In this document: one piece after another, positions 4,784 through 22,976 of the stretch
Position numbering within the stretch: position 1 is the first letter of the stretch
How the letters are laid out: each line of letters opens with the position of its first letter
NCBI GenBank assembly: GCA_028716665.1
Contig: JAQUPP010000002.1
Span: forward strand, 267,717-331,716
DNA from: Patescibacteria group bacterium
Lineage (GTDB): Bacteria > Patescibacteriota > Patescibacteriia > UBA2591 > JAQUPP01
Reading direction: 5' to 3'
Length of the DNA: 64,000 bases
The notes under the pieces: model-generated
The model's database searches: none
Told to the model about the DNA's origin: nothing
Seen by the model: only the letters and a program-made list of their open reading frames with translations
Position numbers and translations under genes: made by a program

Positions 4784-6181
4784 ATGTCAAGCATAAATCA
4801 AAAAATTTTTCTCGCTTATGATATTCGGGGAATATACCCGAAGGATTTTAATGAAGACGCGGCCTATAAAATAGGTCGTGCTTTTGTTGATTTTCTTTGT
4901 TCCAAATTCCAAATTCCAAATTCCAAATTCAAAGTAGTTGTCGGCCGCGATTGCCGTTTGGCCGCGCCTAAAATTTTCAAGTCATTTTCTAAGGGCGTAA
5001 TTGATCAGGGGGCAAATGTTATTGATATTGGCAAAGTTCCGGTTGATGCTTTGTATTTTGCGCTCCATTATTTTAAAACTGACGCCTCGGCGATGATTAC
5101 CGCCAGTCATAATCCGCCGGAATATATTGGCATTAAAATGATGGCCAAAGATTCCAAATGTCTTTGCGCTGATTGGGGAATTCCGCAAATTAAAGAATTG
5201 GCGCTCAAGAATCAATTTATAAAAGCTAAACATCACGGCAAAGTTATTAAAAAAGATATTGTGCCGCACTATTTGAAATATATTTTGAATTTAGAAGATA
5301 TCAGTTCAATTAAACCGTTAAAAGTGGTGGTTGACGCCAGTAACGGCATGGCCGGTAAAATAGTTAAATCATTGGCGAAAAAGTTGCCCATTAAATTAAC
5401 TTGTCTTTATTGCAATCAAGATGGCTCTTTTTTAAATCATCCGTCGAACCCGCTTCTTCCCGAAAGCACGCGTGATTTACAAAAAGAAGTGATAAAACAG
5501 AAAGCGGATTTCGGATTAATTTATGACGGTGACGGAGACAGAACGATTTTTATTGACGAAAAAGGACAAGCGGTGAGCGGCGATATGCTTATTATTTTGT
5601 TTGCTTCTTATTTTCTTAAGAAAGAGCAGGGAGCGACCATTGGTTATAATTTGATTTGTTCAAAAAGCGTGCCGGAAATAATTCGAGAAATGGGCGGAAA
5701 ACCGTTGCGCACCAAAACAGGCCAATCGTTAGTCAAAGAAATAGCTAAAAAACATCAGGCGATTTTTACCGGTGAAATTTCAGGACACATTTGTTTCCGC
5801 GATACTTTTTATGTTGAATGCGGAGGATTAATTTTGCTTTTAATGTTAAAAATTTTATCAGCGACCAAAACACCGCTTTCGCAAATAATCAATAATTTTA
5901 AACGTTATTACCGCCTCGGAGAAATTAATTTTGAAGTAAAAAATAGCCAGGCAATTATTAAAAAAATAGCTGAAATATATAAAGACGGCAAACAAGATTG
6001 GTTGGACGGTTTGACCGTGGATTATTGGAGTTCTCCCGCCGTAAAGGGCGGGACAAGCTGGTGGTTTAATATTCGTCCTTCAAATACAGAGCCATTATTG
6101 CGACTGGTGATTGAAGCTGAAAATAAAGAAAAAGCAGAAGAGGAATTTAAAAAAATTAGTAGAATTATCAAAACAGCATAA
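4784..6181 (+). CDS. phosphomannomutase/phosphoglucomutase family protein
   Basis: TASHNPPEY active-site serine loop, GDGDRT metal-binding loop. Confidence 0.8.
   Translation: MSSINQKIFLAYDIRGIYPKDFNEDAAYKIGRAFVDFLCSKFQIPNSKFKVVVGRDCRLAAPKIFKSFSKGVIDQGANVIDIGKVPVDALYFALHYFKTDASAMITASHNPPEYIGIKMMAKDSKCLCADWGIPQIKELALKNQFIKAKHHGKVIKKDIVPHYLKYILNLEDISSIKPLKVVVDASNGMAGKIVKSLAKKLPIKLTCLYCNQDGSFLNHPSNPLLPESTRDLQKEVIKQKADFGLIYDGDGDRTIFIDEKGQAVSGDMLIILFASYFLKKEQGATIGYNLICSKSVPEIIREMGGKPLRTKTGQSLVKEIAKKHQAIFTGEISGHICFRDTFYVECGGLILLLMLKILSATKTPLSQIINNFKRYYRLGEINFEVKNSQAIIKKIAEIYKDGKQDWLDGLTVDYWSSPAVKGGTSWWFNIRPSNTEPLLRLVIEAENKEKAEEEFKKISRIIKTA
4901..4935 (+). repeat. heptanucleotide tandem repeat (TCCAAAT)x4 plus degenerate fifth copy inside the PMM/PGM coding sequence
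   Basis: perfect copies at 4901-4928 encoding SKFQIPNSKFK. Confidence 0.8.
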
Positions 6182-6299: not shown

Positions 6300-6537
6300 G
6301 CCAGTCCTCATCTATTTCTACGTCCTTAAATATCACCGTGTGGCATACTGCTATATAAGCAGTGCTTTTTTCAACATGAGAGCCGTCAACGTTTACATTT
6401 TTATCTTTGAAGATAATTATGATCGGTTTACCATTGGCGTCTGCTGTAATTTCCAATATTTTTACATTATCGTACTCTTCGTTAATTCCTGCCCCCACGA
6501 TACGAAAACTCTGTATTTTTTCTTTCATTTTTATCAC
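6289..6537 (-). CDS. hypothetical small protein
   Basis: GGGGGTG SD before internal MKEK start; no motif. Confidence 0.4.
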   Translation of the reverse strand: MIKMKEKIQSFRIVGAGINEEYDNVKILEITADANGKPIIIIFKDKNVNVDGSHVEKSTAYIAVCHTVIFKDVEIDEDWQKK

Positions 6538-6611
6538 CCCCTTTTTTTTACTGAAATTATTATAACATTTTTTATAAATCCGTCAACTCTGTTTTTTGTT
6601 TTGTTTATAGT

Positions 6612-9211: not shown

Positions 9212-10996
9212 ATGATAAATCAAGAATTAGCAAAAATATTTTACGAAATTGCCGAATACCTTGAAATGCAAGGAGTGTCTTTTAAACCCTATGCTTATCA
9301 AAAAGCGGCCCTTACTTTGGAAACACTGGAAGAATCAGCGGAAGATATTTATCACAAAGACGGACTAAAAGGCTTGGAGAAAATTCCCGGAGTGGGCGAG
9401 AGTATTGCTTTGAAAATGGAAGAATATTTAAAAACAGGCAAAATAAAATATTATCAAAAATTAAAAAAACAAACACCGGTTAAAATAGATGAATTAACGG
9501 CGGTTGAAGGAATGGGTCCTCAAAAAATAAAAATACTTTACGAAAAATTAAAGATTAAAGATTTGAAAGATTTGGAAAAAGCGGCTCAGTCGCACAAAAT
9601 CGCTCCGCTTTTCGGCTTTGGCGAAAAAACTGAAAAAAATATTTTGGAAGGAATTGAGTTTTTAAAAAGGAGTAAGGGGAGATTTCTTTTGGGGGAAATT
9701 TTGCCCATGGCCAAAGAAATTTATCAAAAATTGGAAAATTTAAAAGAAGTGGAAAAAGTGGACATGGCCGGTTCTTTGCGAAGAAGACAGGAAACCATCG
9801 GCGATGTTGATTTTTTGGTAATTTCGGAAAATCCAAAAAAAGTGATGGATTTTTTTGTTTCTTTGCCCGGAGTAATAAAAGTTTGGGGCAAAGGTATGAC
9901 AAAAGCTTCAGTCAGAATGAATAACGGTTTTGATATGGATATTCGAGTTGTGCCAAAAAACAGTTATGGCGCGGCTCTTCAATATTTCACCGGTTCAAAA
10001 GATCATAATATTGTTGTCAGGAAAATAGCCATGGAAAAAGGATTAAAACTTTCCGAATACGGACTTTTTCGCGGTTCAAAAATGATTGCCGGAAAAACCG
10101 AAGAAGAAATTTATAAAGCTCTCAATATGAATTGGATACCCCCGGAGATGCGGGAAAACAGAGGAGAGATAGAGGCGGCTTTAAAAAATAATTTGCCGAA
10201 AATTATCGATTATAATGATATTAAGGGCGATTTGCATTGTCATTCCAATTGGGATGGCGGAGAAAATACGATTCTTGAAATGACTGATAAAGCCATGGAA
10301 ATGGGTTATGAATATATTGGTATTTCCGATCACACAAAATTTTTAAGAATTGAAAATGGATTGGACGAGAAACAACTTTTAAAACAGCACGAAGAAATAG
10401 AAAAATTAAATTCCAAATTTCGGCCTAAGGCCGACCAGCCTCGGGCTGGCAAGATTCTTACCTCCACTAAAGTTATAGTGGATGAGCAAAATTCCAAATT
10501 CCGCATCTTGCACGGCTGCGAAACAAATATTTTAAATGACGGTTCAGTTGACATTAAAGATGAGGTTTTAAAGAAATTAGATTTTGTCATTGCCGGCGTT
10601 CATTCCAATTTTAAATTAAGCAAAGAAAAAATGACGGCCAGAATAATCAAGGCGATGAAAAATCCGAATATTGATATTATCTCGCATCCGACCGGCAGAA
10701 TCATCAAGAAAAGAGAAGAGTATCAAATTGATTTTAACGAAATTTTAAAAGCGGCAAAACAAACAGGCACAATTTTGGAAATTAACGCTCATCCGGTGAG
10801 ATTGGATTTAAACGATCAGAATATCCGCCGAGCAAAAGAAATGGGAGTAAAAATGATTATCAATACGGATGCGCATCACAGAGACCAGATGAAACTTATG
10901 GAATTCGGCATTGCTCAAGCCAGGCGAGGTTGGGCGGAGAAAAAAGATATAATCAATACTCAGCCGCTGGAAAAATTATTGGAATATCTAAAATAA
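9212..10996 (+). CDS. DNA polymerase X family protein with C-terminal PHP domain
   Basis: N-terminal HhH Pol-beta-like region (IPGVGESIALK), nucleotidyltransferase GSLRRRQETIGDVD, PHP histidines (HCHSNWDGG, ISDHT, NTDAHH). Confidence 0.85.
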   Translation: MINQELAKIFYEIAEYLEMQGVSFKPYAYQKAALTLETLEESAEDIYHKDGLKGLEKIPGVGESIALKMEEYLKTGKIKYYQKLKKQTPVKIDELTAVEGMGPQKIKILYEKLKIKDLKDLEKAAQSHKIAPLFGFGEKTEKNILEGIEFLKRSKGRFLLGEILPMAKEIYQKLENLKEVEKVDMAGSLRRRQETIGDVDFLVISENPKKVMDFFVSLPGVIKVWGKGMTKASVRMNNGFDMDIRVVPKNSYGAALQYFTGSKDHNIVVRKIAMEKGLKLSEYGLFRGSKMIAGKTEEEIYKALNMNWIPPEMRENRGEIEAALKNNLPKIIDYNDIKGDLHCHSNWDGGENTILEMTDKAMEMGYEYIGISDHTKFLRIENGLDEKQLLKQHEEIEKLNSKFRPKADQPRAGKILTSTKVIVDEQNSKFRILHGCETNILNDGSVDIKDEVLKKLDFVIAGVHSNFKLSKEKMTARIIKAMKNPNIDIISHPTGRIIKKREEYQIDFNEILKAAKQTGTILEINAHPVRLDLNDQNIRRAKEMGVKMIINTDAHHRDQMKLMEFGIAQARRGWAEKKDIINTQPLEKLLEYLK

Positions 10997-15240: not shown

Positions 15241-15648
15241 TTATAAAAACTTTATTTTTTCTTTATTTACTGTTAAAAATTCTTTTTTAACCGCTAATTG
15301 CGGGAATTTTTTGCGAATGATTTTCTCGGCTTTTTCCAATTCTTTCTTGTGAAATTCAATTTCTTCTTTTTCTGATTTAAAATTTTTACTTCCGCCATAA
15401 GCTCCGCAATCTATGTGATTCACCAAAATTATTGAGTGCGGGTGATGCAATTTTATAGATATTCCGATATTTTCCAAAAGAGTTATTTTGTTTTCTTTTT
15501 TAGCCGGCGAAGTTAAATTTTTGATCGCTCCGGCTATTGTAATCAAATCAAAGTGGCCGTATTTTTCTTTTAAAAGCGGTAAGGCCTGAGGCCAAAAACG
15601 GTAATCAATACAAGAAATAACAATTGATAAGTTTTTTTGATGCAGCAT
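15241..15648 (-). CDS. small beta-carbonic-anhydrase-like protein (minimal)
   Basis: CIDYR and HIDCG zinc-ligand-like motifs about 57 residues apart, as in beta-CA (CxDxR ... HxxCG); only 135 aa. Confidence 0.35.
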   Translation of the reverse strand: MLHQKNLSIVISCIDYRFWPQALPLLKEKYGHFDLITIAGAIKNLTSPAKKENKITLLENIGISIKLHHPHSIILVNHIDCGAYGGSKNFKSEKEEIEFHKKELEKAEKIIRKKFPQLAVKKEFLTVNKEKIKFL

Positions 15649-15670
15649 ATTATTTTAATAATTTTTTATT

Positions 15671-15757
15671 TGGTGCCGGAGGAGAGATTTGAACTCTCAT
15701 AAGCTTGCGCTTACAGCGCTCTGAACGCTGCGTGTATACCAGTTTCACCACTCCGGC
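15671..15757 (-). tRNA. tRNA-Leu (anticodon CAG), class II with long variable arm
   Basis: minus-strand GCCGGAG acceptor, anticodon stem CAGCG/CGCTG with loop TTCAGAG, T-loop GAGTTCAAATCTC, CCA encoded. Confidence 0.85.
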
Positions 15758-15809
15758 AAAAGTATACCAACTTGCCCCGCTTTTCGCGGCGGGGTTCCAC
15801 CACGTGGGC

Positions 15810-17603
15810 CTACTTCCAAACCATCTTTGTTTTAATATACCAATTTTCAATATTGATAAAACGATCTGATGGTCGGTGAATATAATTGATATCTATCCCT
15901 TTTATTTTTTTATCAACCAGGTAGCTGTAAGTGGTATTGTATAAGAAAACGGCCGGAATATTTTCAGCGATAATTTCTTGAAAGTCGCCCCAATATTTTT
16001 TACCTAAATTATTTCCTTTTGTTTTTTCCGCTTTTTCCAATAATTCATCAGCCTTTCTATTATTAAAACCGCTTAAATTCAAACCCGGAGGCGCGATTTG
16101 CGAAGAATGCCAAAGAAAATAAGGATCGGAATCGGAATTAGCCAAAACGCCATAAAGAAAACTTTGAAAATTACGCGCTTTGATAACTTCAGCAATTTGG
16201 TCCGGTGAAATGGTAATTGATTTTATTTTAATGCCGATATCTTGCCAGGCGGTTTGAATTAATTTAGCAGTTGTTTCCAAATCAGGCTGACTGACCGTAG
16301 TGAGAGTTATTTCCAATTCTTGTCCGTTTTTTTCAAAAATTCCCCGCTGATTTTTTTGCCAACCGGCTTGAGTTAAAGTTTTTTCCGCCAAAGACGGATT
16401 AAAACTGTATTTTGTAATATTCGGATTGTAAGCGGAAGAAAAAGGGAGGATAGCGCTGTCTATAATTTGCCCTTCTTCGTTTAAAACATTTTTAAAAATT
16501 TGATTTTTGGGTGTTAAATAAGCCAATGCTTCTCGAACAGATTTATCTTTTAAAGGAGAATTTTGATCTTTAAGATTAAAAAAGATAACAGTATAATATG
16601 GCAAGTTAAGGGGGTAATGTTTGATATTTTTAAGACCGGACACTTCGTCTCTTATTTTTTTAGGAGCATATCCCAGACCGATAATTTCTTGATTTTTTAA
16701 AGCTTTGGCTGCTTGATTGAAATCGGAATAAATTTTAAAAGTTATTTCTTGTAGATTTGCCACGTGTCCGTAAAATTTTTCATTGCGTTCCAAAGTATAT
16801 ACTTTAATAACATTAGATCTGTCTTGGGTTAAAGATTTAAATTGAAACGGACCACTTCCTATTGGTTTGAGATTAAATTCTGATTGAGAAAAAATTTCCG
16901 GTGTAATATTTTGCCAAATGTGTTTTGGTAAAATTCCCAAGGCAAGGGCGGACATAAAAGCGTCTGAAGGATTTTTTAATTTAAATTGAACGCAATTTTC
17001 ATCAAGCTGTTGAGCTTCTGATTCTTTAATCAAGGATTTAAATTGACTTTTAGAAACATCACTTTGAGCCAAATTAAAAGTGAATAATATGTCTTCAGGG
17101 GTTAATTTTTCTCCGTCATGCCAAAATATATTTTTTTTAAGACAAACTGTGTATTGTTTTTTATCTTGGCTGACCGAAACATTTTCAGCCAAATCAGGTT
17201 TTAATTCCAAGTTTTTATTATATTCTAAAAGTCCGGAAAAAATCAAACGGGATAAATCCAAATCCATGTCATCGGAAGCGAGAAGAGGATTAATAAATTT
17301 TGGCTCACTGACAGATCCTTCAATATAATATCCGCCGCTGATAGGTTTTGTTTGTAAATTAAAAAACCAAAAACGCCCGACAAGAAAAATAAAAGAAAAA
17401 AGAGTCAGGCATGTCAGAACAATAACAACTCTTTTCTCTTGAATAGTCAGAAAACGCCCGACATATTTTATTTGTTTTAAAGTCGGATGTTTTTTATTGA
17501 ATATTTGTTTGAAAATTCGGTGCTCAAATTCCGGAATAGCAACAAACCGATTTTTCAATCTTTGTACAATTTTTTTGATCATGGAGAGTTTTTCTATTGC
17601 CAA
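15810..17603 (-). CDS. ABC transporter substrate-binding protein, family 5 (peptide/nickel type), membrane-anchored
   Basis: N-terminal TM helix, size and FWHDGEKLTPEDILFTF-type SBP_bac_5 region. Confidence 0.55.
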   Translation of the reverse strand: MAIEKLSMIKKIVQRLKNRFVAIPEFEHRIFKQIFNKKHPTLKQIKYVGRFLTIQEKRVVIVLTCLTLFSFIFLVGRFWFFNLQTKPISGGYYIEGSVSEPKFINPLLASDDMDLDLSRLIFSGLLEYNKNLELKPDLAENVSVSQDKKQYTVCLKKNIFWHDGEKLTPEDILFTFNLAQSDVSKSQFKSLIKESEAQQLDENCVQFKLKNPSDAFMSALALGILPKHIWQNITPEIFSQSEFNLKPIGSGPFQFKSLTQDRSNVIKVYTLERNEKFYGHVANLQEITFKIYSDFNQAAKALKNQEIIGLGYAPKKIRDEVSGLKNIKHYPLNLPYYTVIFFNLKDQNSPLKDKSVREALAYLTPKNQIFKNVLNEEGQIIDSAILPFSSAYNPNITKYSFNPSLAEKTLTQAGWQKNQRGIFEKNGQELEITLTTVSQPDLETTAKLIQTAWQDIGIKIKSITISPDQIAEVIKARNFQSFLYGVLANSDSDPYFLWHSSQIAPPGLNLSGFNNRKADELLEKAEKTKGNNLGKKYWGDFQEIIAENIPAVFLYNTTYSYLVDKKIKGIDINYIHRPSDRFINIENWYIKTKMVWK

Positions 17604-17675
17604 GCGAGCGAGGGAAATGAAAATAGTAAATTTTTATTTCCGAGCGAGCACAGGCAAAAAATGGTTTAATAACCT

Positions 17676-17909
17676 TTACTTGGCGATAATTAATTGAACC
17701 ACTCCCAAGATGAGAAAGGCAACTGCGGCTACGGCAGTAATCGCGAAGATAATTTTTTCAAGTCCTCGTTTGGTGTGATAAACATCACCGCCACCGCCTC
17801 CGCCGAATAATCCTGACGCACCTCCGCCTCTTGCTTGCAAAAGCACTCCACTGATAAGAACAGCGGAAACGACGATTTGAACAATGTTGAGAATTTGAGA
17901 TGTAGACAT
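17676..17909 (-). CDS. secG: preprotein translocase subunit SecG
   Basis: 77 aa, two TM helices with Gly-rich loop LLQARGGGASGLFGGGGGG. Confidence 0.55.
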   Translation of the reverse strand: MSTSQILNIVQIVVSAVLISGVLLQARGGGASGLFGGGGGGDVYHTKRGLEKIIFAITAVAAVAFLILGVVQLIIAK

Positions 17910-17930
17910 ATAAATTTTTTTATTAATTAA

Positions 17931-18746
17931 TTATTTCTTAACTGTTGCTAAATAGGTATTTTTTAATAAAAATGCGACGCTTAGCGGACCAATGCCGCCG
18001 GGAACAGGCGAAAAGTAAGAAGCTTTTAAGGCAACTTTTGGATCAACATCTCCGGCCGGTTTGTTATTAACTCGGTTATAACCAACGTCTATGACAATGG
18101 CATTTTTTTTGATTATTTCTGATTTGATAAAATGAGGTTTGCCGATAGCGACAATCACAATATCCGCTTTTTTTATTGCTGTTGGATTTTTTATTTTTCC
18201 TTTAACCAAATAAACGCATTGAGATTTTATTTTTTGGCGAATCAATAATTCGGCCAATGGCTGAGCGAAAATCGGATTCTTGGAAATAATCACCGCTGTT
18301 CTCCCTGCCTGCCGGCAGGCAGGTTTTTTTTCTTTCGCGACTTGAATCAGTTTTAAAACAGCTAAATGAGCAGGTGAAGAGAAAAGAGATTGTTTAACAA
18401 AACCGTCAACATCTTTTTCTGGCAAAATTGATTGAGCGATTAAATTTGAATTCAAATGTTTGGGAAGAGGGAATTGGATAATAATGCCGTGAACATGAGA
18501 ATTGGAATTAAGTTTTTGAATTAAATCCAAAACTTTTTTTTGGCTGACGTTATTTTTCAAATCAAAACGAACAAATTTAATGCCGATTTCTTGGGCCGCT
18601 TTTTCTTTTAATCTGACGTAAACTATTGAGCCCGGGTCTTTGCCGATTAGAATTACTGCCAAGCAGGGTTTTGTCCTTTGCCTTTTAATCGTTGTTTTCA
18701 GGTCCTGAAGTATTGTTTTGGCTATTTTTTTCCCGTTTAAAAACAT
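17931..18746 (-). CDS. folD: bifunctional methylenetetrahydrofolate dehydrogenase/cyclohydrolase
   Basis: MFLNGKKIAK...PCLAVILIGKDPGSIVYVRLKEKA N-terminus, Rossmann GKP region; TATAAT with TGG extension 6 nt before ATG (leaderless-like). Confidence 0.85.
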   Translation of the reverse strand: MFLNGKKIAKTILQDLKTTIKRQRTKPCLAVILIGKDPGSIVYVRLKEKAAQEIGIKFVRFDLKNNVSQKKVLDLIQKLNSNSHVHGIIIQFPLPKHLNSNLIAQSILPEKDVDGFVKQSLFSSPAHLAVLKLIQVAKEKKPACRQAGRTAVIISKNPIFAQPLAELLIRQKIKSQCVYLVKGKIKNPTAIKKADIVIVAIGKPHFIKSEIIKKNAIVIDVGYNRVNNKPAGDVDPKVALKASYFSPVPGGIGPLSVAFLLKNTYLATVKK

Positions 18747-18774
18747 AGAATTATTATACCAGAAAGTTAAAAAT

Positions 18775-18925
18775 AGGGAAGAGGGGCGGCCATTAGGTTG
18801 GCCGCACGAAAAGACTCCGCCAGCTGGCGGACCACTCGGACTCCGTGACGCTTTTCTTTGCGGCGCAATCTGATGGCCTAAGGGGGTAAAAAAAGGAATA
18901 TTGGGAATAATTTTGAAAAATCAAT
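18775..18925. ncRNA. GC-rich structured element (candidate small RNA), class unknown
   Basis: about 60% GC island in AT-rich DNA; nested helices TTAGG/CCTAA, GCCGC/GCGGC, GAAAAG/CTTTTC; perfect 14-nt palindrome CCGCCAGCTGGCGG; followed by plus-strand terminator. Confidence 0.3.
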
Positions 18926-18964
18926 AGCCCTGGCGACGATGCGCCAGGGCTATATTTTGTTTTC
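18926..18964. terminator. intrinsic terminator (copy 1 of a duplicated terminator)
   Basis: AGCCCTGGCG-ACGAT-GCGCCAGGGCT then TATATTTTGTTTT. Confidence 0.7.
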
Positions 18965-18967
18965 GAT

Positions 18968-19366
18968 TTAAATAATAACTGTCACCAACCAAAATCCTAA
19001 CCAGATTAGAATAATTTCGGGGATTACGGAAATAAACAGGGCGCTCTTTTTTATACCCAATTCATTGACAATGTAATCGACTTCAATAATGAATCGACGG
19101 GCAAGAAAGGCAACACCAATAATAAGAATAATAAGAACATCCAGAGAGGTTGCAAAAAAAGTTAAAAAGATAAAAACACTAAAAACAACAGCAGGTAAGA
19201 TGATAGGAATAGCAGTAGTACCAGTAAAGCAAAGTAGAATACAAGGAATAGCAAGAGTTAAACCACCCGCAGACATAACATCTCCACTTCTTAGATTTAA
19301 TGTTATAGCAAATATACTAATCACAACAATAAGACTGATAATCTCAGTCCAAATTAGTTTTTTCAT
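18968..19366 (-). CDS. multi-TM membrane protein, paralog A (MKKLIW ... LIWLGFWLVTVII)
   Basis: shares N- and C-terminal 10-15 aa and 3' flanking DNA with 19507..19926. Confidence 0.5.
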   Translation of the reverse strand: MKKLIWTEIISLIVVISIFAITLNLRSGDVMSAGGLTLAIPCILLCFTGTTAIPIILPAVVFSVFIFLTFFATSLDVLIILIIGVAFLARRFIIEVDYIVNELGIKKSALFISVIPEIILIWLGFWLVTVII

Positions 19367-19464
19367 TTTTTCTCCTTTTGTTGAATTGTTAAATAACTAA
19401 TTTAACGGTTATTATATATAAATATAATAGCAAATTTTTTGGTTTTTGTCAAGTTAAAATCAAT

Positions 19465-19504
19465 AGCCCTGGCGACGATGCGCCAGGGCTATATTTTGTT
19501 TTCG
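19465..19504. terminator. intrinsic terminator (copy 2, identical hairpin)
   Basis: identical AGCCCTGGCGACGATGCGCCAGGGCT hairpin plus T-run. Confidence 0.7.
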
Positions 19505-19506
19505 AT

Positions 19507-19926
19507 TTAAATAATAACTGTCACCAACCAAAATCCTACCCAGATTAAAAATATTTCTAATACAGCCGATATTAAAACATTTTTCTTCTTAAATCCCAGA
19601 CGTAAGACGGCCCTGAAAGAGATTAGGGCAAAAATACCGACAATAAAGAAAAGAATTGAGCGAACGATGGCGGAAGAGAAAGAAGCAAAGATGAAAAGGG
19701 CGGCGAAAGCAGAAACTAGGAAAGCCGCAGAGGATTCATAGGCAAAAAAGTCTTCTTGAATAGCGGCAAAGAATAGGGTAATAAAGCCAGACGTAAAGGC
19801 GGCGATACAGACAGAATCAGCAAGGGTAGCAAACGGAAATTTATATTTTTGAAAGTAAAACCCAATTCCAAAAATTACAATTGTAACGATAATAGCAAAT
19901 AATTCGGCCCAAATTAGTTTTTTCAT
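19507..19926 (-). CDS. multi-TM membrane protein, paralog B
   Basis: same termini as 18968..19366, divergent core. Confidence 0.5.
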   Translation of the reverse strand: MKKLIWAELFAIIVTIVIFGIGFYFQKYKFPFATLADSVCIAAFTSGFITLFFAAIQEDFFAYESSAAFLVSAFAALFIFASFSSAIVRSILFFIVGIFALISFRAVLRLGFKKKNVLISAVLEIFLIWVGFWLVTVII

Positions 19927-19940
19927 CTTTTCCCCCTTTT

Positions 19941-20183
19941 CTACTTTACTAAACCAGTTTTAATAAATATTGAAAGGCTTCCCCAGATAGTCCCAAAGAA
20001 TATCAAGAGAACACTCAGTAGTACTACTATAAACGTTATCATATTTTTTATGTTCTTATCTTTCACTTTATATATTATAAACCAATTGCCACCAAGCGCT
20101 AATCCTATTCCTGCTACCATCATACTAATTGGTATCCAAGTTGATATTTGTATATTCATTTTTCCTCCTTTTGTAAGGAACAA
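19941..20183 (-). CDS. small membrane protein (80 aa)
   Basis: two TM helices; promoter-like TTGACA motif upstream on minus strand. Confidence 0.4.
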   Translation of the reverse strand: MFLTKGGKMNIQISTWIPISMMVAGIGLALGGNWFIIYKVKDKNIKNMITFIVVLLSVLLIFFGTIWGSLSIFIKTGLVK

Positions 20184-20227
20184 AGTTTATCGATTATTAT
20201 ATAAATATTTAAGCAAATTTTTCGCCT

Positions 20228-20388
20228 CTTGTCAACCCCCTCACCAAACACTGATATATTTTTTAAAACACGAAGCCAATTTATTTCTATTTAAGGTATT
20301 TTTTTTATTTATATCAAAATTTTAAATTTAGAGATTTAAAAATACAGAGCTGAGTGTTTATCAGTGTTATAGGTGAGGGGGTCAAGTG
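20228..20388. repeat. imperfect ~30-bp inverted repeat pair flanking a 100-bp AT-rich spacer in the lon upstream region
   Basis: CTTGTCAACCCCCTCACCAAACACTGATA ... TATCAGTGTTATAGGTGAGGGGGTCAAG. Confidence 0.6.
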
Positions 20389-20526
20389 AGAGTCTTGATT
20401 TTAATTTCAAAAGAGTTATAATATAAACAGTTTATAGTTTTTGGTTGATGGTTATGGTTATTCAGTTATTCGTTTATAACCAGAAACTAATAAACTAAAA
20501 CTAAAAACTAATAACTAAGAACTATT

Positions 20527-22845
20527 ATGATTTTTGGCACAAAAAAAGAATATCCGTTAATTCCTCTGCGCAATGAGGTTATTTTTCCCGGGACCACTGT
20601 TCCGGTGGTTTTTAAGAGTTCATATTCTCAAATCGCAGTGGAAGAATCTTTACACAAAGGAAGAATGGCGGTTTTGGCTTGGCGAAAAAGAAATATTCAA
20701 GGGCAAATAAGTTTGGAAGATATTCATTCAATGGGAACATTGGTGAAAATTTTGGAAAACCACAAAATGCCCGACGGAACGATTATCGCCATGGTTGAAG
20801 GTCAGGCGAGGGTGAAAATAGAAAATATTTTTCCAAAAAATGATTGCGCCATAGTTGAAGTCAGAGAAATTTTGGATGTTGAACAATTGACTTTGGAGGG
20901 CGAGGCCTTGCTTCATAATATTGAAGATTATTTTAAGAAATGCGTGGCTTTGGGAATGTCCATTCCGACTGAAACTTTATCAATTATTTTTTCCAGTCCG
21001 AAACAATCAGCAAAAATAGATTTGATCGCTTTTTCATTAAGTTTGGAAGTATCGGAAAAACAAAAAATTTTGGAAGAAATTTCTTTGAAAGAAAGATTAG
21101 AATTGGTTAATGAAGCCATTCGCCATAAATTGGAAGTTTTACAAGTGGCGAAAAAAATAGAAAAAAAGACAAATGAAAGCATTAATAAAGTTCAGCGAGA
21201 AGCAATTTTACATGAACAAATGAAAGCCATTCAAAAAGAGTTGGGAATGGGCGAGCGGGCCGATATCGCGGAATTAAAAAAGAAAATAGAAAAAGCGGAA
21301 ATGCCGGAAAAAGTCAAGAAAGTCGCTCAAGACGAATTGGAAAGATTAATCGCCATGCCTTCTTTTTCTCCGGAAATTTCTTACATCAGAACATATCTTG
21401 ATTGGCTGGTTTCTTTGCCTTGGAACATAAAATCAAAAACCGAACTTGATATTTCAAAAGCGGAAAAATTTTTAAATGAAGATCATTACGGACTTACAGA
21501 TGTTAAAGAAAGAATTTTGGAACATCTGGCTGTTTGCAAATTGGCGAAAAAAATCAGAGGACCGATACTTTGTTTTGCCGGACCTCCGGGCACCGGAAAA
21601 ACTTCAGTCGGCAAATCCATTGCTCGGGCAATGGGCAGAAAATTTGTCAGAATGTCGCTTGGCGGAATCAGAGACGAAGCGGAAATCAGAGGACATCGCC
21701 GAACTTATGTCGGAGCTTTGCCGGGCAGAATTATTCAAGGCGTTAAAAATGCCGGCGCCAATAATCCTATTTTTATGCTGGATGAAATTGATAAAATCGG
21801 AGCTGATTTCAGGGGCGATCCTTCTTCAGCTTTACTTGAAGCTCTTGATCCGGAACAAAATTTCGCTTTTTCAGATCATTATATTGAATTGCCGTTTGAT
21901 CTTTCTGATGTGATGTTTGTCGCCACGGCCAATGTTTTAGACACCATTCCGCCCGCTCTGCGAGACAGAATGGAAATTATTGAATTCCCCGGATATACGG
22001 AAGAGGAAAAATTTCATATTGCCAAAAAGTTTTTAATGCCGAAATTAATTGCCGCTCACGGACTTGATGCCAAAAAATTCACCATTACTGACGAAGCGAT
22101 CAGAGAAGTGGCCACAGGTTATACTCGCGAAGCAGGAGTAAGAAATTTGGAAAGAGAGCTGGCGAAATTATGCCGCAAAATAGCCAAGAAAATTACCGAA
22201 GATTCAAAAGAAGCCAAAAAAAATCAAGTTATCGGACCGAAAGATCTTCACCAATATCTCGGACCGATTGTTTTTCAACCTACTTTGGCCGAGAAAAAAG
22301 ACGAAGTTGGCGTGGCCACGGGTTTAGCATGGACTTCAGCCGGAGGCGAAATTCTTTTTATTGAATCCACAAAAATGCCGGGCAAAGGCAATTTGATTTT
22401 AACCGGTCATTTGGGAGAGGTGATGAAAGAATCTGCTCAGGCCGCTTTTTCTTACGCTCGCAGCCATTGCCAAGAATTAAAAATAAATAAAGATTTTTAT
22501 AAAAATTTTGATTTGCACATTCATGTTCCGGCAGGCGCCACACCGAAAGACGGACCTTCGGCCGGCGTAGCCATGGCCATTTCGCTTATTTCTTGTTTGA
22601 CTAACAGATCAACAAAAAGAGAAGTTGGAATGACGGGTGAAATAACTTTGCGCGGCAAGGTTTTGGAAATCGGGGGAGTGAAAGAGAAAATTTTAGCCGC
22701 TCATCGAGCCGGTTTGAAAAAAATAATTCTTCCCGCGGAAAATAAAAAAGATTTGGAAAAATTGCCGGAAAAAGTTAAAAAAGATTTGCAATTTATTTTC
22801 GTCAAACATATTGATGAAGCGATTAAGGTTGTCTTAAATAAATAA
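20527..22845 (+). CDS. lon: ATP-dependent Lon protease
   Basis: Walker A GPPGTGKTS, DEIDK Walker B, protease PKDGPSAGVAM serine site. Confidence 0.9.
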   Translation: MIFGTKKEYPLIPLRNEVIFPGTTVPVVFKSSYSQIAVEESLHKGRMAVLAWRKRNIQGQISLEDIHSMGTLVKILENHKMPDGTIIAMVEGQARVKIENIFPKNDCAIVEVREILDVEQLTLEGEALLHNIEDYFKKCVALGMSIPTETLSIIFSSPKQSAKIDLIAFSLSLEVSEKQKILEEISLKERLELVNEAIRHKLEVLQVAKKIEKKTNESINKVQREAILHEQMKAIQKELGMGERADIAELKKKIEKAEMPEKVKKVAQDELERLIAMPSFSPEISYIRTYLDWLVSLPWNIKSKTELDISKAEKFLNEDHYGLTDVKERILEHLAVCKLAKKIRGPILCFAGPPGTGKTSVGKSIARAMGRKFVRMSLGGIRDEAEIRGHRRTYVGALPGRIIQGVKNAGANNPIFMLDEIDKIGADFRGDPSSALLEALDPEQNFAFSDHYIELPFDLSDVMFVATANVLDTIPPALRDRMEIIEFPGYTEEEKFHIAKKFLMPKLIAAHGLDAKKFTITDEAIREVATGYTREAGVRNLERELAKLCRKIAKKITEDSKEAKKNQVIGPKDLHQYLGPIVFQPTLAEKKDEVGVATGLAWTSAGGEILFIESTKMPGKGNLILTGHLGEVMKESAQAAFSYARSHCQELKINKDFYKNFDLHIHVPAGATPKDGPSAGVAMAISLISCLTNRSTKREVGMTGEITLRGKVLEIGGVKEKILAAHRAGLKKIILPAENKKDLEKLPEKVKKDLQFIFVKHIDEAIKVVLNK

Positions 22846-22927
22846 TAATTTAAGATTTGACGCAATAAAAATATGCTTATTAATAAGCATATTTTTATTA
22901 TTTGACGTTTATATTGTAATTTATAAA

Positions 22928-22976
22928 GTTAAATCATTTCTCACGGCCGTGAGAAATGATTTAACTTTTTTTATTT
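22928..22976. terminator. intrinsic terminator with CACGGCCGTG core
   Basis: long perfect hairpin AGTTAAATCATTTCTCACGGCCGTGAGAAATGATTTAACT plus T-run. Confidence 0.7.

Follow-up and report, generated by a model that had tools for sequence, protein, structure and literature searches.

The stretch of DNA considered here (64,000 nt, called the window throughout; contig JAQUPP010000002.1 of GCA_028716665.1, a Patescibacteria metagenome-assembled genome) has an overall GC content of 35%, and the 221-nt spacer between folD (17931-18746, minus strand) and the first of two small membrane-protein genes (18968-19366, minus strand) contains a GC-rich island that raises a simple question: is it a gene for a structured RNA, or a piece of DNA that has been inserted there? 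The original prediction, made from the letters of the sequence, was that of an independent small RNA or, as a fallback, of another structured element. We consider it probable that what lies upstream of folD is a DNA insertion of ~119 nt, compound, palindromic and GC-rich, and not a conserved small RNA gene, in which case the fallback was correct and the kind of structured element can be named. The element is present or absent among relatives, it is flanked by direct repeats, its modules are common to unrelated loci, and comparable inserts recur in one loop of PolX in distant lineages. The DNA examined amounts to ~64 kb of the element-bearing genome and ~60 kb of relatives.

The comparison with relatives begins with FolD, for which a protein search gave two clusters at 90% identity and then a gap down to 57% identity. 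Four distinct close lineages were available, namely L081/L129 (GCA_028717225.1), L088/L127 (ENA), L089/L128 (JGI 3300014208) and L082 (JGI 3300029288). Their FolD proteins are 89-91% identical, and the gene order lon / membrane-protein / folD / secG / substrate-binding-protein is kept in them (in the window lon starts at 20527 on the plus strand). The element is absent from all 4/4 of these nearest lineages, in which the spacer measures ~88 nt and consists of the terminator followed by TTGCCT-N16-TGGTATAAT-N6-ATG; it is likewise absent from the farther relatives L083-L086, and spacers at farther folD loci measure 66-68 nt. The sole other copies are those of L087 and L090, which are 99.98-100% identical to the window, and the FolD of the window is also encoded on contig JAQTOE010000017.1 of GCA_028713475.1, a contig that agrees with the window at 99.98% of positions along 13 kb. 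The element thus appears to be confined to one bacterial population. These copies also bear on the suspicion that we are looking at an assembly or chimera artefact, since amplification or assembly errors can create palindromes. However, the identical sequence stands in the independently deposited assemblies GCA_028713475.1 and GCA_028690995.1 and in a 334-kb contig, and the palindromes that lie within genes (see below) keep the reading frame and differ from lineage to lineage by ordinary substitutions, so that an artefact is scarcely credible.

The extra DNA of the window also carries the marks of an insertion. In the alignment with the four relatives it falls between TTGATTTTTCA and (C)CTATTTTTAAC, and the whole insertion unit (18778-18896, 119 nt) comprises a GC-rich hairpin, purine-rich flanks and one copy of a direct repeat. 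The left copy of this repeat, TAAAAATAGG (18768-18777), looks like a duplicated target site and overlaps the folD promoter in its -35 region; the right copy is TAAAAAAAGG (18887-18896). The two, located by repeat search and alignment, are 10 nt long, match at 9/10 positions and lie 119 nt apart from start to start. Relatives carry a single TAAAAAAAGG at the insertion site. When aligned more loosely, the duplication extends to ~14-15 nt; its copies, ATATTCCTTTTTTTA and CTTCCCTATTTTTA, lie on opposite sides and both resemble a single ancestral ATTTGCCT(T/A)TTTTTA, that is, the -35 region. Two hallmarks of a MITE (miniature inverted-repeat transposable element) are found at this site: a target-site duplication in the form of the 10-nt flanking repeat that is single in relatives, and terminal inverted repeats, the arms of which start 8-10 nt inside the duplicated target.

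Because the insertion abuts the folD promoter, its relation to that promoter deserves attention. The core promoter and start codon (18744-18761, minus strand) read TGG-TATAAT (18761-18753), AATTCT and ATG (18746-18744) and are invariant in all six aligned sequences. The extended -10 element TGGTATAAT, which had been placed six nt before the ATG of folD, is indeed there, invariant in five lineages, and the N-terminus of FolD aligns with its homologues from M1. With a predicted promoter between element and gene, the element, in line with the original prediction, is not a folD leader: it sits upstream of the conserved core promoter, relatives keep this promoter without the element, and nothing in it matches a ZTP or THF riboswitch. 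A 5' leader or riboswitch of folD (of the ZTP, THF or an unknown class) would have had some appeal, as the element adjoins a folate-cycle gene, its repeated motif could compete for a pairing partner on the minus strand and a terminator-like hairpin is present. The invariant extended -10 between element and ATG, the lack of any match to ZTP (pfl), THF or another riboswitch at E<=10, the blank result of a covariance model in the folD loci of 86 genomes and the absence of the element from the nearest relatives nevertheless make this explanation extremely improbable. The folD gene has no Shine-Dalgarno sequence, and its mRNA appears, from the position of the predicted promoter, to be leaderless or nearly so.

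Could the element instead act in cis on transcription, either as a second terminator or insulator on the minus strand (TCCGCCAGCTGGCGGA followed by GUCUUUUCGU) that stops read-through into folD from the membrane-protein genes, or by weakening the folD promoter? A scan did report a terminator-like site on the minus strand (18831-18816), and the insertion, which abuts the -35, replaces ATTGATTTTTCATTTGCC with GC-rich DNA while keeping the folD core promoter, which after insertion reads TTCCCT-N16-TGGTATAAT. However, the U-tract of the would-be terminator counts four U only and is buried in the long outer hairpin, relatives, which have the same strong 12-bp terminator, do without it, and nothing indicates that any such effect is selected rather than incidental. 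We therefore regard a cis-acting role as quite unlikely. The local effect of the insertion is likely small, given that the folD core promoter is kept and AT-rich DNA upstream of the -35 is swapped for GC-rich DNA.

The element stands out by composition and by fold. Its GC content is 0.598 over 18776-18892, 0.615 over 18788-18878 and 0.588 over the 119-nt unit, with 0.335 (18600-18775) and 0.358 (18897-19100) in the flanks, and at 0.62 it is the top 100-nt GC peak of the whole window. An island of roughly 60% GC had been described correctly, but it measures ~115 nt rather than ~150 nt, in flanks of ~34-36% GC. The core hairpin (18788-18878, plus strand, 91 nt) has an 18-bp outer stem with one bulge, a GAAAAG/CTTTTC inner helix and two apical hairpins. 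The arms of the outer stem, GGCCATTAGGTTGGCCGC and GCGGCGCAATCTGATGGCC, are 18-19 nt long, differ by two transitions and a 1-nt indel, pair as DNA with 85% complementarity and are both fitted by one arm-consensus pattern; the left arm GCGGCCATTAGGTTGGCCGC forms a 7-bp hairpin on its own. Two of the nested helices seen by eye, GCCGC/GCGGC and GAAAAG/CTTTTC, occur in the minimum-free-energy fold, whereas the TTAGG/CCTAA register is not used and the best fold pairs GGCCAUUAGGUUG with CAAUCUGAUGGCC instead. On the plus strand the 91-nt core folds at -48.9 kcal/mol (z -6.3, 0/200 shuffles as good), on the minus strand at -41.8 kcal/mol (z -3.4), the difference being due to two G.U pairs in the outer stem, and no other 110-nt segment among all those scanned reached as low an absolute folding energy.

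One of the two apical hairpins is hairpin A, a perfect palindrome of 16 nt, TCCGCCAGCTGGCGGA (18816-18831), of which the 14-nt palindrome CCGCCAGCTGGCGG noticed earlier is a part. The repeated GACTCCG motif is present as well, in two copies read from the plus strand (18813-18819 and 18839-18845), which form a 7-nt perfect direct repeat on both sides of CCAGCTGGCGGACCACTCG. This arrangement suggests that CCAGCTGGCGGACCACTCG may be a nested insertion into an older GAAAAG...CTTTTC hairpin.

Modules of this hairpin recur at other loci. Within the clade, the central palindrome TCCGCCAGCTGGCGGA is found at three of them: in the element, in the PolX gene of relatives and at the orthologue of window position 2717. 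In the PolX gene of L127-L129, GTCCGCCAGCTGGCGGA provides 17 nt identical to the centre of the element, in frame, and the insert (L127 16821-16853) sits between two 15-nt target copies that match at 12/15 positions. The window's own PolX gene (9212-10996, plus strand) has at 10420-10491 a different insert of ~70 nt, with three GC-rich hairpins, in frame in a loop of the PHP domain and flanked by a perfect 12-nt direct repeat, AAATTCCAAATT; it is at this codon position that relatives hold hairpin A. A 27-nt unit of the window insert, GCCCGAGGCTGGTCGGCCTTAGGCCGA (that is, GCCCGAGGCTGG-TCGGCCTTAGGCCGA), parallels GTCCGAG-TGG-TCCGCCAGCTGGCGGA of the element and turns up again, with 4 edits, in relatives, whose phosphoglucomutase gene holds it as an in-frame insert of 30 nt (L127 20289-20318), at a place that corresponds to window position ~5217. 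The reading frames differ, yielding RPKADQPRAG in PolX and SAQGRSTSDG in phosphoglucomutase, which rules out that the two inserts encode one peptide.

Further members of this collection are found within genes and between them. The phosphoglucomutase gene of the window (4784-6181, plus strand) carries, ~800 nt downstream of the site used in relatives, the palindrome TCCCGCC-GTAAAG-GGCGGGA (6034-6053), which arose from a 12-nt in-frame insertion and is absent in L127-L129. Inside folD itself there is a perfect 20-nt palindrome, CCTGCCTGCCGGCAGGCAGG (18304-18323), in frame and encoding PACRQAG; the site shows four G>A changes in L081 and L088 (PTYRQAR), and the palindrome is absent from L082 and from distant FolD proteins. 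A 52-nt insert (15758-15809) that carries the hairpin CCCCGCCGC-GAAAA-GCGGGG separates tRNA-Leu from the stop codon of the substrate-binding-protein gene, and a degenerate copy, 15 nt long, of the tRNA 5' end flanks it; the insert is present in L127-L129 and absent in L082, where the tRNA directly follows the stop codon. At 15671-15757 (minus strand) ARAGORN calls a tRNA-Leu(CAG) with a long variable arm; the Rfam scan at gathering threshold gave only two other tRNAs. Finally, an intergenic hairpin, TCCGCC-AACTTG-GGCGGA (2717-2734), stands ~190 nt upstream of a UbiE-type methyltransferase gene, and its orthologous site in L130 and L131 (L131 5342-5357) is exactly TCCGCCAGCTGGCGGA. The PolX hairpins of L131 are altered, the first in its loop and the third by decay, which suggests mutational drift, and not selection on structure.

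The recurrence of one perfect 16-bp palindrome at three loci, two of them intergenic and upstream of genes, could also be taken to mean that TCCGCCAGCTGGCGGA, which contains CAGCTG, is bound by a protein (as an operator, or as a site recognised by a recombinase or a restriction-modification system) and that the larger hairpin is incidental. The third locus lies inside the PolX coding sequence, though, the loop AACTTG that replaces AGCT at window position 2717 would break a site sensitive to spacing, and no candidate binding protein was identified. Taken together, these points render a binding site very unlikely.

The PolX loop is of interest beyond the close relatives. In an alignment of 33 PolX homologues, this PHP-domain loop is a hypervariable insertion site in many Patescibacteria: the common form of the protein (574 aa) has a tandem LNSKFxI-LNSKFxI with nothing between the copies, and other lineages have unrelated inserts of 6-27 residues there. 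The DNA was inspected in two distant lineages. In the Nealsonbacteria genome L132 the insert measures 66 nt, has a GC content of 0.61 in a gene of 0.35, contains two GC-rich hairpins, folds at -42.4 kcal/mol (z -7.3) and is flanked by a perfect 13-nt repeat; that of L133 is of the same design.

We now return to the small RNA. The most concrete version would be a species-specific, trans-acting plus-strand RNA of ~195 nt that starts at ~18765, divergent from the folD promoter, comprises the 91-nt hairpin followed by an A-rich linker and ends at the bidirectional terminator (18924-18964). The steadier plus-strand fold speaks for it, though weakly, as do a T-run after the terminator hairpin on the plus strand, a TATTAT on the plus strand opposite the folD -10 and the purine-rich, single-stranded flanks. 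The terminator speaks against it. The terminator hairpin that had been described does exist, but this intrinsic-terminator hairpin (18924-18953, minus strand), which scores on both strands, lies outside the inserted element and belongs to the membrane-protein gene at 18968-19366. A stretch of 54 nt (18917-18970) recurs unchanged at 19456-19509, downstream of the paralogue of that gene, and a homologous terminator directly follows the membrane-protein gene in every relative, including those without the element. Since this terminator is duplicated together with a minus-strand gene and is present in relatives that lack the element, it serves to terminate minus-strand genes and tells nothing about a plus-strand RNA. 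Nor did a scan for sigma-70-type promoters find anything acceptable beside the element on either strand, the weak candidates seen by eye being TATTAT (plus strand) and TTGATT-N16-AATATT (minus strand).

The searches for RNA families and homologues point the same way. The Rfam scan that had been proposed as a check was run, and the element stays unclassified: at gathering threshold the whole window gave two tRNAs only, and at E<=10 scans of 401 nt and 136 nt gave only noise over the element, namely AaHKsRNA20 at 15.3 bits (threshold 43) and raiA-hairpin at 10.9 bits (threshold 43.7). Compared by eye, neither the SRP, 6S, tmRNA, RNase P, ZTP and THF RNAs nor CRISPR repeats, integron attC sites, retron RNAs and domain V of group II introns fit the element. 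A blastn search of plasmids and phages gave no homologue of the element, two patterns had 0 matches in viral contigs, and a pattern with exact loops and purine/pyrimidine stems had 0 matches in metagenome contigs. The arm-consensus pattern had 36 matches in the latter, all single, none paired and none extending beyond the seed; we dismissed them as chance, and most of them lie in coding sequence of high GC content, IS3-type transposase genes among it. The concatenated six-frame translation of the element had no homologue among 5.8 billion proteins. A covariance model of the element, run with filters off, found no second copy in the window; among 93 related loci it found nothing except a weak match that led to the PolX hairpin, and in the folD loci (3 kb flanks) of 86 other genomes there was no match. 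A contig scan based on FolD yielded distant folD loci only (<=43% identity), in which the covariance model found no element.

The claim of an independent small RNA is accordingly not supported: the nearest lineages do not conserve the element, and none of the collections searched holds a homologue. The copies that exist are all identical and offer no covariation, and the central hairpin also occurs within coding sequence of relatives. A species-specific small RNA is, all told, unlikely. Two other functional readings were discarded. The 51-aa (plus strand) and 43-aa (minus strand) open reading frames have no homologue and overlap the promoter or the terminator, and CsrA-type GGA motifs and anti-Shine-Dalgarno-like flanks are not above expectation.

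How might a palindromic DNA insertion of this kind have come about? The element would have been assembled from short palindromic modules, with TCCGCC-AGCT-GGCGGA in the middle and modules like GGCC-TTA-GG towards the ends. Such modules would be gained and lost at many sites of AT-rich genomes, usually with a target duplication of 7-15 nt, and would land between genes and, in frame, in loops of housekeeping proteins. Their spread could be by copy-and-insert, either through MITE-like transposition or through repair synthesis that is templated or primed by a hairpin. On this view the element would be selfish DNA or a by-product of repair, and its hairpin would owe its stability to the DNA as such, without a selected RNA function.

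Several controls bear on this proposal. Of the 20 indels measuring 9 nt or more that separate the window from relatives, five bear a palindrome of a quality that <=2.2% of random windows reach; a perfect stem as long as that of the 20-nt palindrome in folD occurs in 0.3% of them. Shuffled windows gave 0 matches to any shared unit. GC-rich 6-bp hairpins number 14 in the window and 0.65 in shuffles, and those with at least 8 paired bases number 8 versus 3, half of the 8 being terminators. We dropped the notion of a huge enrichment of GC-rich hairpins, as controls that preserve composition give 7-12, and likewise that of an uptake-sequence-like excess of k-mers, because the GC-rich k-mers are explained by clumped G+C codons.

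Not everything fits the proposal, and the following points weigh against it. First, the 14 hairpins are only 1.2-2x the number in the mirror, direct and complement controls (7, 12 and 8). The excess is so small because G and C are clumped in this genome, and with abundance this near to the controls, the case is carried by the indel coincidence and the shared modules, and not by abundance. Second, 64 kb hold a single full-length copy, and what other loci share with it are short pieces (16-27 nt). Third, no clear flanking duplication accompanies the FolD insert or either phosphoglucomutase insert. Fourth, neither a transposase nor any other enzyme that could mobilise the element was identified, the proteins of the window not having been scanned for RAYT. 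Fifth, the preference of the fold for the plus strand through two G.U pairs is as expected under selection on a plus-strand RNA, although two C>T changes would also yield it, with a probability of ~1/4. Sixth, the polarity can be read either way: the four relatives, 92.5-97% identical among themselves, have the lineage of the window (91% identity) as their outgroup, so that by sequence comparison one ancestral deletion would be equally as parsimonious as one insertion. Under either polarity, the presence/absence pattern marks the element as dispensable.

It is instructive to compare the element with known systems. Rickettsia palindromic elements (RPEs) are palindromic insertions found between genes and in frame in genes (PMC10969869). 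The modules described here resemble them in being hairpin-forming palindromes in the small AT-rich genome of a host-dependent bacterium, located both between genes and in frame in tolerant housekeeping genes, and here, too, one DNA module lies in frame in unrelated protein genes (hairpin A, the 27-nt unit). RPEs, however, measure ~100-150 bp, form defined multi-copy families and encode a conserved peptide, whereas the units seen here measure 16-30 nt, are of low copy in the DNA examined, vary in frame and are GC-rich compared with the genome. The likeness is one of kind, with no similarity of sequence expected.

With bacterial MITEs (Correia, ERIC, RUP, BOX) the element shares a length of ~120 nt, imperfect terminal inverted repeats, one long hairpin and a flanking repeat of 9-10 bp, as well as an intergenic position near a promoter and a terminator and presence or absence between close strains. 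Its sub-modules recur at two or three loci each. It differs from MITEs in that no second full-length copy was found in 64 kb, in that the inverted repeats lie 8-10 nt inside the target and not at the ends and the duplications at related sites vary from 7 to ~15 nt, and in that no parent insertion sequence or transposase was seen and the arm-consensus pattern gave no paired match. REPs and REPINs, too, are built from short GC-rich palindromes, two inverted units of which make a hairpin of ~100 nt, but REPs are strictly extragenic, reach tens to hundreds of copies and are linked to RAYT, whereas the present modules are also intragenic and of low copy in 64 kb.

Mobile DNA is among the things reported in a study of yeast mitochondrial genomes (PMC4478555). 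The GC clusters of these organelles offer a suggestive analogy to the element, as GC-rich palindromic clusters that stand between the genes of a very AT-rich genome and are optional between strains; being units of 30-60 bp with short specific targets and unrelated sequences in a eukaryotic organelle, they can serve as an analogy only. Yeast GC clusters are also found in the coding gene var1, with an AT-rich target duplication.

Lastly, nearly precise excision of Tn10 and end-joining with P/N-nucleotide or templated insertions leave palindromic filler between two copies of a target. The empty PolX sites with tandem LNSKFxI do look like the footprints of such events. The fillers described here, however, are GC-rich, common to several loci and unexplained by local hairpin opening, and no transposon with matching ends was seen.

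From this we venture, tentatively, a broader proposal. It is possible, although we would put it no higher than that, that Patescibacteria carry an undescribed class of tiny GC-rich palindromic insertion modules: units of 16-30 nt that would nest into hairpins of ~120 nt, with target duplications of 7-15 nt (<=21 nt at PolX) that may be retained on loss, and that would be tolerated, in frame, in surface loops of conserved enzymes (PolX, FolD, phosphoglucomutase) and between genes. Such modules would be a counterpart of the mitochondrial GC clusters and of RPEs, and might be a product of templated repair and not of a transposase. We found no description of such insertions for Patescibacteria in the literature searched, which is not proof of novelty.

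For annotation, the consequence is that one false small-RNA candidate is removed, and that a strongly folding GC-rich island in the AT-rich genome of a candidate phylum is, taken alone, no evidence for a structured RNA gene. If the broader proposal were true, a mutational or mobile process would repeatedly write GC-rich hairpins into the tiny genomes of Patescibacteria, including the frames of conserved enzymes. This would bear on protein-length variation, strain typing, recombination hotspots and the evolution of promoters and terminators, it would affect non-coding RNA screens that use GC content or folding energy, and it would provide a tractable case for the spread of palindromic selfish DNA where genes of mobile elements are few.

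Several minor observations concern the neighbourhood of the element. The membrane-protein gene next to it and its paralogue at 19507-19926 (minus strand) are followed by a third frame at 19941-20183; these tandem small genes have no Pfam match. The two paralogues have 102 nt in common at 96% identity (18917-19018 versus 19456-19557), and relatives hold 1-3 such paralogues in the lon-folD spacer. Identity to L081/L129 is 99.3-99.6% in lon (20155-22856) and ~91% in the folD-secG-substrate-binding-protein block (15246-18780), a contrast that makes the lon-folD spacer a recent recombination boundary.

On the other side of folD, an insert of 81-84 nt that is found only in the window (17593-17676) lies between secG and the substrate-binding-protein gene; it has a direct repeat, CTCGCTCG, and is not palindromic, and relatives show a gap of ~10 nt at this site. 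The longest open reading frame of the substrate-binding-protein gene in the window has 597 aa (with a TTG start), whereas the protein is called at 590 aa in the near-identical contig L087 and in relatives. Downstream of lon, a window-only insert of 70 nt (22864-22933) contains an AT-rich perfect palindrome of 36 nt, made of two 18-nt arms without a loop. At the corresponding place downstream of lon, L127 has an AT-rich perfect palindrome of its own (6530-6565), ACACTTATTTTACACGG|CCGTGTAAAATAAGTGT, unlike that of the window, and these lineage-variable palindromes after lon are probably variable terminators.

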